From an uncultured Alphaproteobacteria bacterium (lineage in GTDB: Bacteria > Pseudomonadota > Alphaproteobacteria > Rhizobiales > Xanthobacteraceae): DNA of 64,000 nucleotides. How positions within the stretch are numbered: the stretch's first letter is position 1; every line of letters starts with the position of its first letter. Positions 12,778-18,108 of the stretch are shown piece by piece. Location: NCBI GenBank assembly GCA_963742975.1, contig CAVUNZ010000025.1:20230-84229 (forward strand), written 5' to 3'. Under the pieces are notes generated by a model. It was not told where the DNA came from and made no database searches. It saw only the letters and a program-made list of their open reading frames with translations. The translations under genes were made by a program, and so were the position numbers.

Positions 12778-14355
12778 ATGTGCGGCATTGCGGTAGCCAT
12801 CGATTGGGATGGCGCTGAGACGGCGGTTCAACACCTGATCGCGGGCATGCTGCATCGCGGCGACGTCACCGATCCCCCGATCACGATCAGCAAGGGCACC
12901 GCGATGTGCACGCGCCGCCTGCGCATCGTCGATGCGCAGAACGGGATGCAGCCGAAGGCGTCTTTCGACGACCGCTTCCTCGTCGCCTTCAACGGCGAAA
13001 TCTACAATCACGTCGAGTTGCGGCGTGAACTCGAAGCGCGCGGCGTTAAGTTTCACAGCGGCTGCGACACCGAAGTGGTCGCCAATGTGCTGCGGGTCTT
13101 CGGCCCCACCGGGATCAAGCGGCTTTCCGGCATGTTTGCCTTTGTCGCACTCGACGTGATGACCGGTGAATTCCTCGCCGCGCGCGATCCGTTCGGCGTC
13201 AAGCCGCTCTATCTGATCCAGACGCCCGAAGCTCAGGCGCGCAAGGGCTTCTTGTTCTGCTCCGAGATCAAGCCGCTGTTGCAGGCGACCGAAAGCGGTG
13301 ACGTCATGTTGCTGCCGCCGGGCCATGCGCTGACGGGCAATTTTTTTGGGCGCTATTACAATCTGCCGTCCCCGGCACCGGCGAGCGTAGCTTGGGGCGC
13401 GGCTGTGCCGCAGGATCTGGACCGCATCCTTGCCGAAGCCGTGCGCGTGCGCGTGCCGCCGGATCTGCCGGCCGCAGCGCTGTTCAGCGGCGGCATCAAC
13501 TCGACCCTCATCATGCATTACGCGCGGCGCTTCTGCCCCGATATGCCCGGCTATATCGCCGTCGGCCGCGGCTCGCCCGATTATCTCTTCGCGCGGCATT
13601 ATGCCGAGGAGACCAGTCTCGATCTGCGCGAGGTCGCAATCGATACCCATGACGCAAAGACGCTGCCGCTCATCGCCACGGTGGTCGAGACCGTGGAGAC
13701 TTTCGAGCCGGCGGTGGTTCGGCCGAGCTTCCACACTTATCTGCTGTCGCAGCGCATTCATCAGGACGGTTTCCGCGTCGCCTTGTGCGGCGAGGGCGCC
13801 GATGAATTATTCGCCGGCTATTCGCCGCTCGAGCTTGCCTTTTCGCAGGCGAACGGTCAGGGCCGCTATCTGCAGGCGCAATGTCTGGGCATGATGCATC
13901 GCGCTAATCTGCAGCGGGTCGATCGCTGTTCGATGCATTTCCAGCTCGAAATCCGCGAACCGTTTCTCGATCAGGCCGTCGTCAACTATGCGGCAGGCCT
14001 TGATAAATCGGCTCTGGTGAAGCGTTCCGGCAATGCCGTCCCGGTCGGCAAGGCGCCGTTGCGCGCGATCTACGACCTTTATCCTTCGCAGCTGCCGATC
14101 AGCATCAGAGACCGCGACAAAATGCTGTTCAACGAAGGCGCCGACGGCGATGTGGAACGATCGGGCTGGCTCGATCTGTTCGAACAGGCGGTGTCGGACG
14201 CCGATTTCCGCGACGGCCAACGTCAATTCGCAGCCTTCGGCGTCACCACCAAAGAAGAGCTGTTCTATATTCGCGCGCTTGCCGCCAGGATGGATGTGAA
14301 CCGTATTCCGCATCTGCGCGGGCGGCTCCGCTTGGACATGCCGCGGGCCGCCTGA
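12778..14355 (+). CDS. asparagine synthase (glutamine-hydrolysing)-family amidotransferase
   Basis: Starts MCGI (Ntn Cys2), with NGEIYN and CDTEV in the GATase domain and a SGGINS PP-loop. ATG 12778 sits behind a G-rich RBS. Confidence 0.85.
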   Translation: MCGIAVAIDWDGAETAVQHLIAGMLHRGDVTDPPITISKGTAMCTRRLRIVDAQNGMQPKASFDDRFLVAFNGEIYNHVELRRELEARGVKFHSGCDTEVVANVLRVFGPTGIKRLSGMFAFVALDVMTGEFLAARDPFGVKPLYLIQTPEAQARKGFLFCSEIKPLLQATESGDVMLLPPGHALTGNFFGRYYNLPSPAPASVAWGAAVPQDLDRILAEAVRVRVPPDLPAAALFSGGINSTLIMHYARRFCPDMPGYIAVGRGSPDYLFARHYAEETSLDLREVAIDTHDAKTLPLIATVVETVETFEPAVVRPSFHTYLLSQRIHQDGFRVALCGEGADELFAGYSPLELAFSQANGQGRYLQAQCLGMMHRANLQRVDRCSMHFQLEIREPFLDQAVVNYAAGLDKSALVKRSGNAVPVGKAPLRAIYDLYPSQLPISIRDRDKMLFNEGADGDVERSGWLDLFEQAVSDADFRDGQRQFAAFGVTTKEELFYIRALAARMDVNRIPHLRGRLRLDMPRAA

Positions 14356-14516
14356 ACGTTAGCGGCGCTTAAAACCGGATACAGAGACGCGCCCGGCCTA
14401 CGGACGTCCTGCGTGATCAGGCGCTCGCGCAATGGCGCAACCGCGGCTCCAGGACAAAACCCCAAGACAAAGATATAAAATGCGGATTGGTGTGGCTTCG
14501 GTGCGCGGGGCTGCGT

Positions 14517-14882
14517 TTAGCGCTTGTCGCGCAGGCCGGCGGCAAGGCCGCGATTGATCTTGATGATCGATTTCAGATGGTCCGGCTTCGGCTTGGTCAT
14601 CATCGAGAAAGTCTCGGCCATGACATAGACGCCGAGCCGTCTGATGTTATCGCGAACCTGCTTCGGCAGCCTGTTGGTTTCGTTTGTCACTGCGTCGAGA
14701 AACACCGTCCACAGCCGGCGATTATAGAGCAGTGCTTCGTCGAGGCCGCGCGGCTTGTCAGACCAGGAATCGTGAACGGCCTGCAATTTCGCAGCGGCTT
14801 GCAGCAGCAAATTGGCCTCGAGCTCACGCGGCGACGCCGTCTCAACATTGGTCTTGGCATAGGCGTTGACGGCGTGACGCAT
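14517..14882 (-). CDS. flaF: FlaF flagellar regulator, if translated from the internal ATG
   Basis: Internal ATG 14882 is preceded by AAGGAA. 121 aa, FlaF-like N-terminus AYAKT..ASPRELEA. Confidence 0.6.
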   Translation of the reverse strand: MRHAVNAYAKTNVETASPRELEANLLLQAAAKLQAVHDSWSDKPRGLDEALLYNRRLWTVFLDAVTNETNRLPKQVRDNIRRLGVYVMAETFSMMTKPKPDHLKSIIKINRGLAAGLRDKR

Positions 14883-15257
14883 CTTCAGATGTTCCTTTTC
14901 GTAGGCAATAAGCTTGCGCGCTTCCTTTAAAGCTTTATACGGATCGCCTGTTAAGATTAGGTTGTTGATGCTTTCGATAAAGGGTTCGGCGCTCGGCGCG
15001 GCCTTGAGGAATTCGTCCGCCAGCCGGAAATAGAGCGCGTGGTGCTCTTTCGGGTTCTTGGCCGTGTAAATGAACTGGACAGCGAGATAAATGAGCTTCG
15101 CCAGGCTGTCGGCGCGGCCCAGCGTCATGATGTCCTTTTCGCGCAGGATACGAACCTGGCCTTCGATCTTCAGGCGCGTGCGGGAGCCGGCGTTGGTGAC
15201 AACGCAGTCGCCGAGCAGGATCCGCTCGTTCGGCTTGAGTTCGATTTTTAGGGCCAC
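14517..15257 (-). CDS. flbT: continuous ORF encoding FlbT (flagellin translational regulator) fused in frame to FlaF
   Basis: GTG 15257 lies behind AAGGA. (V)ALKIELKPNERILLGDCVVTN..ILREKDIMT..AKLIYLAVQ is the FlbT part. There is no stop before MRHAVNAYAKT..PRELEANLLL (the FlaF part). Confidence 0.7.
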   Translation of the reverse strand: MALKIELKPNERILLGDCVVTNAGSRTRLKIEGQVRILREKDIMTLGRADSLAKLIYLAVQFIYTAKNPKEHHALYFRLADEFLKAAPSAEPFIESINNLILTGDPYKALKEARKLIAYEKEHLKMRHAVNAYAKTNVETASPRELEANLLLQAAAKLQAVHDSWSDKPRGLDEALLYNRRLWTVFLDAVTNETNRLPKQVRDNIRRLGVYVMAETFSMMTKPKPDHLKSIIKINRGLAAGLRDKR

Positions 15258-15313
15258 GGGACAAATTCCTTGTTGCGAATCCTCGCCGCGCATCAGCATC
15301 GTTGCGCATCGTG

Positions 15314-15330
15314 GTTAACGGATTTCTAAC
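15314..15330 (-). promoter_or_regulatory. CtrA-box-like site (TTAG-N7-TTAAC) upstream of flbT/flaF
   Basis: Minus-strand sequence is GTTAGAAATCCGTTAAC, about 60 nt upstream of GTG 15257. One mismatch to TTAA-N7-TTAAC. Confidence 0.35.
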
Positions 15331-15410
15331 TTGCCCGCCGCGGATGGATCGTCCGATGCGCCGGTCTAGGCCGATCGCCGGGCGGCCGCATTCCCACCCC
15401 GGCGAAGCGC

Positions 15411-15444
15411 TCAAAAGAAAACGGCGGGGTTTTGCCCCGCCGCC
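15411..15444 (-). terminator. rho-independent terminator of flagellin gene 1
   Basis: Stem CGGCGGGG / CCCCGCCG followed on the minus strand by a T-rich run (TTTTCTTTTG). Confidence 0.7.
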
Positions 15445-15470
15445 TTGTTCGAAGCCTATATCGGGCGAGA

Positions 15471-16631
15471 TTAGCCGAACAGTTTGAGCACCGACTGGTT
15501 CGCCTGGTTGGCGATGGACAGTGCCGAGATTTCGAGCTGCTGCTGGGTCTGTTCGGTGAGCAGGTTGGCGCTCTCCTGGTTCTGGTCGGCGACGACCAGA
15601 TTGGTGGCGCCGGTCTGCAGCGTGTTGATCAGCGCCGTCTCGAAGGTCTGCCGGGTCGAGATGGTCGAGGCATTGGTGCCGAACGTCTCGGTCTGGCTCT
15701 GCACCGTCGCCAGCGCGGCATTGATGTTCGCCACCACGGTTGCGAGCTGATTGTCAGACTGGAAGGATGTCCCGCCCGAGCCGGCGATCGCCGACAGGCC
15801 GAGCCCTGCGGCATTGAAGGTTACGCCGGTGATGGTCAGCGAACTGGTGCCGGTCGGATTGAAATCGATGGTCAAGCTGTCGCCCTGCAACAGGTTGACG
15901 CCGTTATAGCCGGAGTCGGCGGCGAGCTGACTGATCTGCGTCAGGAGGCCGTTGTAGTTGCTCTGCAGCGTGCCGCGCGTCGAGCTCGAGCCGATGGCGA
16001 CAGTGTTGGTGGTGGAGTTGGTCGCCACACCCAGCGCCGCCGAAGTGGCACTGCCCACAACGGTGAAGCCGATCGGCGGCTCATTGGAGTTCAGGACCAG
16101 GTGACCCGAGCCGTCGTCGGTCGCGGTCACGATGCCGTTGCTGCCGAGCCCGGTCGTGCCGTTGATGTCGGCCTCGACTTCGCTCAGCGTCGCGCTGGCG
16201 GCGATCGTGACGTTGTAGGTCGACGAACCGACATCGATGCTGAGCGTGCCGGCGGCGAGGCTGACGTTGGCGGTGGTGAGGCCCAAGCTGGTCCCGGTGC
16301 CGGTCGTCGTGGCTGCTACGGTCCAGCTCGCGGACTGCGCTTGTTGCACTGTCGACAGCGCCTGCTGCAAGAGACTGGTCAGGCTGGTGAGGCCGTTGGT
16401 GGCTTGTTGGATGGTTGACGAGCCTTGACCGATCTGGTCGAGCAGCGCGCTCAATGAATTGGCGGTCTGCGTCAAGCTCTGCGAGGTGAAATAGGAGCTT
16501 GGATTGTCGGCGGCGGAGTTGACCTTCTTGCCGGTCGCCAAGGCTTCCTGGGTGGTCGTTAGATCGTTCGACGTCTGCTGCAATGACAGCAGATTCTGCC
16601 GAATGCCGGTAGTGAGAGTAATATCAGACAT
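15471..16631 (-). CDS. flagellin (386 aa)
   Basis: N-terminus MSDITLTTGIRQNLLSLQ..ALATGKKVNSAADNPSSYF and C-terminus ..LSIANQANQSVLKLFG. Confidence 0.95.
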   Translation of the reverse strand: MSDITLTTGIRQNLLSLQQTSNDLTTTQEALATGKKVNSAADNPSSYFTSQSLTQTANSLSALLDQIGQGSSTIQQATNGLTSLTSLLQQALSTVQQAQSASWTVAATTTGTGTSLGLTTANVSLAAGTLSIDVGSSTYNVTIAASATLSEVEADINGTTGLGSNGIVTATDDGSGHLVLNSNEPPIGFTVVGSATSAALGVATNSTTNTVAIGSSSTRGTLQSNYNGLLTQISQLAADSGYNGVNLLQGDSLTIDFNPTGTSSLTITGVTFNAAGLGLSAIAGSGGTSFQSDNQLATVVANINAALATVQSQTETFGTNASTISTRQTFETALINTLQTGATNLVVADQNQESANLLTEQTQQQLEISALSIANQANQSVLKLFG

Positions 16632-16950: not shown

Positions 16951-18108
16951 TTAGCCGAACAGCTTGAGCACCGACTGGTTGGCTTGGTTGGCGATCGACA
17001 GCGCCGAGATTTCCAGCTGCTGCTGGGTCTGCTCGGTGAGCAAGTTGGCGCTTTCCACGTTCTGGTCGGCGACGACCAGGTTGGCGGCGCCGGTCTGCAG
17101 GGTGTTGATCACCGCGTTTTCGAAGCCCTGCCGGGTGCTGATGGTCGACGCGTTGGTGCCGAAGGTTTCGGCCTGCGTCTGCACGGTCGAGAGCGCCGCG
17201 TTGATGCTGGTGACCAGGCTCGAGAGCGTGCTGTCCGACTGGAACGACGTCGCGCCGGAGCCGGAGGTCGCCGACAGGCCGAGACCGGCGGCATTGAAGG
17301 TCACGCCGCTGATGGTCAGTGCGCTGGTGCCGGTCGGGTTGAAGTCGATGGTCAAGCTGTCGCCCTGCAACAGATTGACGCCGTTATAACCGGCGTCGGA
17401 CGCGAGCTGACTGACCTGCGTGAGCAGCGTGTTGAAGTTGCTCTGCAGCGTGCTGCGGGTCGAGCTGGAACCGATCGCGACGTTGTTGGTGGTCGAGTTG
17501 GTCGCCACGCCCAGCGCCGCCGAAGTGGCATTGCCCACAACGGTGAAGCCGATCGGCGCGTTGTTGGAGGTCAGGACCAGGTGACCCGAGCCGTCGTCGG
17601 TCGCGGTCACCGAGCCCGTGCTGCCGAGCCCGGTCGTGCCGTTGATGTCGGCCTCGACTTCGCTCAGCGTCGCGCTGGCGGCGATCGTGACGTTGTAGGT
17701 CGACGAACCGACATCGATGCTGAGCGTGCCGGCGGCGAGGCTGACGTTGGCGGTGGTGAGGCCCAAGCTGGTCCCGCTGGTCGTCGTGGCGGCGGTGGTC
17801 CAGTTCGAGGACTGCGCCTGTTGCACCGTCGACAAAGTCTGCTGCAGCAGGCTGGTGAGGCTGGTGAGGCCGTCGGTGGCCGCGTTGATGGTTTGCGAGC
17901 CCTGGCCAATCTGGTCGAGCAGCGAGCTCAGATTGTTGGCGCTCTGGGTCAAATTCTGCGAGGTGAAGTAGGAGCTCGGATTGTCGGCAGCGGAGTTGAC
18001 CTTCTTGCCGGTCGCCAGCGCTTCCTGAGTGGTGGTCAGGTCGTTGGACGTTTGCGTGAGGGCAAGCAGGTTGGACCGGATGCCCGAGGTTAAGGTGACG
18101 TCAGACAT
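16951..18108 (-). CDS. flagellin paralogue (385 aa)
   Basis: Collinear with the 15471-16631 protein and shares its N and C termini. Confidence 0.95.
   Translation of the reverse strand: MSDVTLTSGIRSNLLALTQTSNDLTTTQEALATGKKVNSAADNPSSYFTSQNLTQSANNLSSLLDQIGQGSQTINAATDGLTSLTSLLQQTLSTVQQAQSSNWTTAATTTSGTSLGLTTANVSLAAGTLSIDVGSSTYNVTIAASATLSEVEADINGTTGLGSTGSVTATDDGSGHLVLTSNNAPIGFTVVGNATSAALGVATNSTTNNVAIGSSSTRSTLQSNFNTLLTQVSQLASDAGYNGVNLLQGDSLTIDFNPTGTSALTISGVTFNAAGLGLSATSGSGATSFQSDSTLSSLVTSINAALSTVQTQAETFGTNASTISTRQGFENAVINTLQTGAANLVVADQNVESANLLTEQTQQQLEISALSIANQANQSVLKLFG

Follow-up and report, generated by a model that had tools for sequence, protein, structure and literature searches.

Within the 64,000-nt stretch of DNA analysed here (the window), a single minus-strand open reading frame, 14517..15299, contains both FlbT and FlaF as full Pfam domains, in agreement with the uninterrupted frame that the preliminary description had claimed. 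Translation of this frame gives 260 residues from an ATG at 15299 and 246 residues from a GTG at 15257. The orthologues begin at a V, M or L codon just before the motif ALKIELK, and the true product is therefore the 246-aa form. The fused gene, designated flbT::flaF, occupies 14517..15257 of the minus strand and comprises 246 codons, starting with the GTG at 15257, and a TAA stop at 14517-14519 (minus strand). An AAGGAA SD-like motif, read from the sequence, is located at 15266..15271 (minus strand), 8 nt upstream of the GTG. The gene lies within a flagellar cluster, where it adjoins two flagellin genes (15471-16631 and 16951-18108), and its neighbours in the window are intact.

The region upstream of flbT::flaF contains two further elements. 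An intrinsic-terminator-like hairpin, GGCGGGG-CAAAA-CCCCGCC followed by GTTTTCTTTT, is found at 15412-15442 (minus strand) after the stop of the flagellin gene at 15471-16631, and its position suggests that transcription of flbT::flaF begins at a separate promoter, within some 150 nt before the GTG at 15257. This hairpin was seen by eye; a promoter and terminator scan of 14200-15700 overlooked it and returned nothing relevant on the minus strand. In addition, the sequence TTAG-N7-TTAA is present at 15315-15329 (minus strand), about 58 nt upstream of the GTG, and differs by one mismatch from the CtrA-box consensus TTAA-N7-TTAA.

The FlbT and FlaF domains are both complete and abut each other, seven residues apart by their Pfam limits. 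In the 260-aa form, PF07378 (FlbT) covers residues 17-137 (E 4.7e-35; profile positions 1-124 of 125) with 120.8 bits against a cut-off of 27, and PF07309 (FlaF) covers residues 145-256 (E 2.7e-29; profile positions 3-113 of 113) with 101.9 bits against a cut-off of 23.6, each being a full-length family match above the curated cut-off. With the NCBIfam model of FlaF, NF009435, the score is 103.9 bits (cut-off 91), whereas the FlbT equivalog NF009432, at 146.9 bits, falls slightly below its whole-protein cut-off of 153. In the 246-aa product, the FlbT domain (residues 1-122; 14892..15257, minus strand) is made of five beta-strands followed by four helices, and the FlaF domain (residues 126-246; 14520..14882, minus strand) is a helical bundle. 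The two are connected by three linker codons for His-Leu-Lys (14883..14891, minus strand), the site of a net 1-nt loss as compared with separate-gene relatives. The flaF start codon is retained as a now internal ATG at 14880..14882 (minus strand), and a second AAGGAA SD-like motif at 14892..14897 (minus strand), 9 nt upstream of this ATG, also encodes the C-terminal Lys-Glu of FlbT. The translated junction reads ...ARKLIAYEKEHLK-M-RHAVNAYAKT..., and the stretch of the fusion protein that spans it is ...YEKEHLKMRHAVNAYAK... The details previously noted at this junction, namely the ATG at 14882-14880, the AAGGAA at 14897-14892, the A4 run at 14899-14896 and the out-of-frame AAC ATC TGA AG ATG, are present exactly as claimed. 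The mass of the fusion is roughly 27 kDa, and that of free FlaF made from the internal start would be about 13.6 kDa.

An AlphaFold2 model built on an 84-row alignment (mean pLDDT 83.4, pTM 0.53) predicts two well-folded domains joined by a flexible tether. Residues 1-122 adopt the five strands and four helices with pLDDT values of 84-95, residues 143-243 form the helical bundle at about 80-92, and residues 127-141 fall below 50. No confident inter-domain packing is seen in the model, and hence no sign of cooperation in cis. The top Foldseek PDB matches of the FlaF half are the FliS chains 6lea, 3iqc, 6gow and 1ory (TMt 0.62-0.69), with weak E-values of 0.05-0.8, and designed helical bundles score similarly to these chains. 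A sequence search of the PDB gave no match.

The fused frame recurs widely among relatives. A six-frame search of 40 relatives revealed a full-length match without stops in seven other genomes of the same genus, at 66-87% identity. A scan at one genome per species provided 80 loci, and frame analysis over loci L001-L101 identified one frame through both domains in 35 loci, corresponding to 31 distinct sequences that are 57-98% identical and all share the same in-frame junction. These loci come from uncultured Xanthobacteraceae or Hyphomicrobiales MAGs from bog, peat and soil (bog_931, SPRUCE, SMAG and MFD), assembled from Illumina short reads (k141, k127 and SPAdes-type) as well as from long reads. 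The best 120 matches in a protein database search, each standing for one cluster (90% identity, about 246 aa) from JGI, ENA, NCBI or Logan, all contain both PF07309 and PF07378. The exact window protein is itself present in public collections; JGI, NCBI, ENA and Logan together contribute 13 members to its 90% cluster, within which one sequence recurs on 12 contigs. Two apparent exceptions or additions were set aside. P0129, a 121-aa 'separate' FlaF and the sole split entry in the 90% cluster of the window protein, is an assembly artefact: the long-read contig that carries it also has its flagellin and AsnB genes in fragments. P0142, at first sight a fusion of 274 aa, has the appearance of a read-through after a frameshift and was left out of the counts.

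Both the FlbT and FlaF halves are under purifying selection. For 25 gap-free fused genes, NG86 yields median dN/dS values of 0.215 (FlbT half) and 0.208 (FlaF half) and a median dS of about 1; at about 0.21 per half and dS near 1, both halves have therefore long been kept functional while fused. As far as the sampled genomes indicate, the fusion is fixed in one clade of uncultured Xanthobacteraceae from soil and peat, represented by about 30 species-level genomes.

The separate-gene relatives reveal the arrangement from which the fusion departs. Wherever the locus is otherwise intact, flaF of every scored relative lies in the +1 frame, and the flbT stop falls 17-146 nt inside flaF. The +1-frame taxa include Rhodoplanes (with the cultured R. 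serenus), Pseudolabrys, Methyloligellaceae, Tepidamorphaceae, Rhodobiaceae and other members of the same genus. The distance from the flbT start to the flaF start is exactly 376 nt in the separate-gene relatives versus 375 nt in the fused genes, and 10 nt are present where the fused genes have the 9-nt linker. Typical separate-gene DNA reads ...GAA AAG GAG CTG ATG GAA A ATG..., the last ATG being the flaF start, and a comparison of separate L013 (CTC GAC C ATG) with fused L003 (CTC GAC ATG) shows one nucleotide missing right before the ATG. Since the fused genes have one nucleotide fewer before this ATG, the ordinary state is a pair of overlapping genes, and the fusion represents a net 1-nt loss. 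Rhodoplanes serenus DSM 18633 and the Pseudolabrys MAGs, with overlapping flbT and flaF, resemble the window in gene order and in the position of the flaF start, and the end of their FlbT, ...LIAYEKE..., doubles as the flaF SD, as in the window; they differ in having one more nucleotide before the flaF ATG and a flbT stop 17-146 nt into flaF.

A maximum-likelihood tree built on the two domains in concatenation (65 rows) groups 30 of the 31 fused genes in a single clade (support 88/81). A separate gene nested among them, L016, represents one reversion by a 2-nt loss, and L034, placed inside a starred clade of separate genes, represents one independent fusion. The fused or separate state thus changes three times in total on the tree; the two states therefore interconvert, which is compatible with a near-neutral rather than an advantageous fusion.

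The preliminary description had offered three readings of the locus: a genuine fusion, a slippage-prone switch and a 1-nt insertion error. The comparison of orthologous loci upholds the first and speaks against the other two. If the A4 run were truly A3, or if another indel had been introduced by sequencing or assembly, the genes would really be separate, and indel errors are indeed common in long-read MAG contigs of close relatives: in each of L051, L080, L081 and L102 the 740-nt gene is interrupted by three or four frameshifts, and the neighbouring genes of L102 are broken too, such that gene calls from these long-read assemblies are unreliable for frame-level questions. However, errors disrupt frames randomly and would not yield an identical fusion each time, whereas the same junction is present in 31 distinct orthologues from differing samples, assemblers and sequencing platforms, and the neighbours of the fused gene in the window are intact. 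The A3 version moreover fits no relative. It had been regarded as a very ordinary arrangement, with FlbT ending at the TGA stop, but the relatives have flaF in the +1 frame with one extra nucleotide and with flbT overlapping flaF. The frame that would result from shortening the A4 run was met only in L051, L080 and L081, all of which carry several other frameshifts, and flaF was found in that frame in none of the otherwise intact relatives examined. The close relatives that were scored as separate at frame offset 2 contain 3-4 scattered frameshifts, yet are in frame over the junction. The probability that the fusion is an error of this kind is negligible. A phase-variable or programmed-frameshift site, at which the A4 run toggles between fused and separate FlbT and FlaF, also seems highly improbable. 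Such a site would be in keeping with the order of elements in the window, where AAAA is followed by the out-of-frame TGA and then by ATG, and with the interconversion of the fused and separate states about three times in evolution. By comparison, the A4 position reads GAAAAGG, GAGAAGG, GAAGAGG or GAAGGGG among the fused genes, the out-of-frame TGA is missing from most fused orthologues (for example L002, L004 and L006), and no conserved slippery or homopolymeric tract occurs at the junction among the 31 distinct fused orthologues. A tract of four adenines is also too short for appreciable slipped-strand variation, which counts against slippage, and the changes on the tree are rare between-species events rather than switching within a population.

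We conclude that the locus very probably encodes a genuine, evolutionarily maintained FlbT-FlaF fusion that arose via a net 1-nt loss with the internal flaF start signals kept. In the proposed route, the ancestor would have had adjacent, co-oriented flbT and flaF genes, with flaF in the +1 frame and flbT extending into flaF by anything from a few codons to about 50. A net 1-nt deletion within roughly 10 nt before the flaF ATG would have brought both frames into register, and subsequent loss of the FlbT stop codon would have created the two-domain protein of 246 aa and roughly 27 kDa. The product would consist of the FlbT domain, the three-residue linker with the flexible N-terminus of FlaF, and the putatively FliS-like FlaF bundle. 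The locus may thus serve as a clean example of overlapping genes fused by the loss of a single base with the start signals of the downstream gene kept.

A second family of fusions was found outside this clade. An exhaustive search of the 50%-identity representatives revealed further two-domain proteins, P0165 and P0169, that are 35-39% identical to the window protein, and with P0165 as query at least 35 clusters of 240-265 aa were retrieved, all with both domains and 37-44% identical to P0165. The P0165-type genes sit after fliX-flgI-flgJ-flgN-fliK in flagellar clusters, identical sequences recur in several samples, and the hosts are MAGs annotated as Micavibrio sp. or Alphaproteobacteria. In typical Micavibrio, among them the cultured M. 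aeruginosavorus with its complete genome, flbT and flaF are separate genes, and the Micavibrio-like fusion is for this reason considered independent in origin. Judged by these comparisons, the Micavibrio-like FlbT-FlaF family is an independent and ancient fusion, older than that of the Xanthobacteraceae clade, in a second alphaproteobacterial order. The Micavibrio-like proteins (P0165, P0299 and others; L104-L113) resemble that of the window in the order of FlbT then FlaF, in length (245-265 aa) and in their location in a flagellar cluster. They differ in having, instead of the N-terminal segment of FlaF, a variable linker about 20 residues long with many Pro, Glu and Asn residues, and in that no start codon is left at the junction; covalent FlbT-FlaF can evidently be the sole form. 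In L104-L113, a nearly invariant Met is found in an M-E-A-Q-L-L motif, at a position where stand-alone FlaF has Leu. Even the gene starts in the genomes of the Micavibrio-like fusions show no SD, so that the presence or absence of an SD before their conserved internal Met is not informative. In the representative library, other fusions of these modules were observed in P0173, P0196 and P0246, which comprise tandem FlaF (two copies, 235 aa; three copies, 325 aa) and tandem FlbT (two copies, 287 aa).

Stand-alone copies of FlaF and degenerate copies of FlbT also occur in the fused clade and its relatives. The genome of the window carries a stand-alone FlaF paralogue of 162 aa (G000:C3:116113-116481; locus L021, 1390-1878, minus strand), which is 64% identical to the FlaF half of the fusion and has a C-terminal extension. 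It is not part of a flagellar cluster and has no FlbT beside it; its neighbours are a TctC/Bug-type binding-protein gene on one side and two Hsp20 genes on the other. Another genome of the fused clade (L039, the G012:C5 sequence, at about 5702) has a further stand-alone flaF about 2 kb downstream of the fused gene. An extra stand-alone FlaF was found in 5/8 fused versus 0/3 separate genomes among the 11 usable ones, a difference that serves as a lead only (Fisher one-tailed, about 0.12), and a tree of the FlaF domain alone (120 columns), built to see if the stand-alone copies represent a single old lineage of paralogues, is poorly resolved. Five further loci of the same genus, L009 (G001), L011 (G003), L012 (G021), L014 (G010) and L017 (G019), retain an intact FlaF, with only short and degenerate pieces of FlbT left directly upstream, part of which are in frame. 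Repeated loss of FlbT thus seems to have occurred in this genus.

Signals for internal initiation at flaF are conserved inside the fused frame. At the old flaF start, 26 of the 31 distinct fused genes have ATG and the other 5 have GTG, so that no further codon occurs at this position, and the three linker codons before it encode 6-9 different residues per column. In the C-terminal codons of FlbT (E-K/E/G-E), the charge varies and the purine run GAA-(AAG/GAG/GGG)-GA(A/G) is kept. The mean anti-SD duplex energy over the 31 fused genes is -6.3 kcal/mol at the junction versus -6.2 kcal/mol at the 5' start of the gene; the mean at 268 other in-frame ATG or GTG codons is -3.1 kcal/mol, and 6.7% of these reach the junction mean. 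In L009, L011 and L014, where FlbT has decayed and in-frame FlbT remnants lie upstream, the intact FlaF begins at the same Met. Because the flaF RBS and start codon are conserved inside the fused frame, the locus probably makes both the FlbT-FlaF fusion and free FlaF. In this regard, the earlier suggestion that the internal ATG and its AAGGAA could yield free FlaF is backed at the level of start-codon and SD conservation. Part of the SD conservation could represent a protein-level constraint, since the SD also encodes the conserved FlbT C-terminus YEKE, and ATG-to-GTG is merely the easiest substitution, which counts against the two-product argument.

Two further readings accept the fusion as real and concern what it produces and what it does. 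According to one of them, only the full-length protein is made, the internal ATG and SD are relics or protein-constrained, and free FlaF comes from the orphan paralogue alone. The Micavibrio-like fusions, with a 20-residue linker and no junction start codon, indicate that a fusion-only protein can suffice, and the genome of the window does carry the stand-alone 162-aa FlaF on contig C3. We nevertheless consider this reading unlikely: all 31 fused genes have ATG or GTG as the junction codon, in contrast to the great variability of the three codons before it, exchanges between K, E and G at the SD codon preserve purines and not charge, the junction SD is as strong as that of the real start, and FlaF starts from the same Met in the FlbT-decayed relatives. 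The other reading holds that the fusion is functionally neutral, being tolerated through the flexible FlbT C-terminus and FlaF N-terminus, with no new regulation. This is a substantial possibility, though hardly the expected one. It is favored by the one reversion and one independent gain on the tree, by the AlphaFold2 model, in which no confident interface is formed (pTM 0.53) and the junction is disordered, and by the fact that a 1-nt indel between overlapping genes suffices for fusion. On the other hand, the fusion persists over a clade with saturated synonymous sites, and a second alphaproteobacterial order fixed this architecture on its own, in ancient times. Together, the clade-wide persistence and the second independent fixation suggest that tethering leaves the protein at least fully functional and may even be favored.

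What the tethered, maintained fusion might do can be considered against the known roles of its two halves. FlbT and FlaF constitute an alphaproteobacterial checkpoint that links flagellin translation to secretion, and are described in the literature as functionally coupled and, in Caulobacter, opposing. In Caulobacter, FlbT and the flagellin paralogue FljJ repress translation of the other flagellins, FlaF acts as a flagellin secretion chaperone, and secretion of FljJ after completion of the hook-basal body lifts the repression (PMC7591256, PMC9812332). The signs of FlbT and FlaF are reversed in Brucella as compared with Caulobacter (PMC8781033). Binding of FlbT to flagellin and to the 5' UTR of flagellin mRNA goes back to Caulobacter and Brucella experiments cited in PMC7591256 and PMC8781033. 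In a 2026 preprint, FlaF is tabulated as a flagellin chaperone and an analog of FliS, and an association of FlaF with FlbT is raised only as a co-presence hypothesis for future study (PMC13277936). A full-text literature search revealed no mention of any FlbT-FlaF fusion, either of the window type or of the Micavibrio-like type. The fusion proteins of about 246 aa in public databases are labelled either 'FlbT' or 'FlaF', and a single label conceals half of each protein.

By analogy with Caulobacter, a tethered FlbT-FlaF would hold the repressor and the export chaperone on the same flagellin at a fixed 1:1 ratio. Once this flagellin was delivered to the export gate and left through the completed hook-basal body, the co-regulator would be gone and the repression lifted directly. 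The bulk structural flagellins, whose genes lie just upstream, would be served by free FlaF, supplied both by initiation at the internal start and by the orphan 162-aa paralogue on contig C3. The direction of regulation by FlbT and FlaF in this organism may follow either the Caulobacter or the Brucella pattern, which differ from each other. The fusion has arisen independently in Hyphomicrobiales and in the Micavibrio-like group, in addition to the gain in L034 inside the Xanthobacteraceae genus, and we tentatively propose, as a plausible reading that is somewhat less likely than not, that FlbT and FlaF normally form one complex on a single flagellin, as a counterpart of FliW-flagellin-FliS. 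If this is true, export of the chaperoned flagellin itself would be the derepression step. A natural, selected and repeatedly evolved covalent fusion argues that FlbT and FlaF can share a substrate in one complex, and the fusion would be a ready-made construct for structural work on an FlbT-flagellin-FlaF assembly.

Our comparison with known systems reveals that FlbT and FlaF of Caulobacter crescentus belong to the same families as those of the window, PF07378 and PF07309, at full length. The obvious difference lies in the arrangement: FlbT and FlaF are separate gene products in Caulobacter, Brucella, Agrobacterium, Rhodobacterales and Rhodoplanes, whereas they form one polypeptide in the window. 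The nearest parallel in concept is the FliS/flagellin/FliW heterotrimer of B. subtilis, in which a flagellin export chaperone and a flagellin-sensing post-transcriptional regulator are present on one flagellin and secretion is coupled to translation (PMC6070490). FliS is also the best structural match of the FlaF half, with weak E-values. By comparison, FliW and CsrA are unrelated to FlbT, and the B. subtilis complex is non-covalent, whereas the pair in the window is covalently joined.
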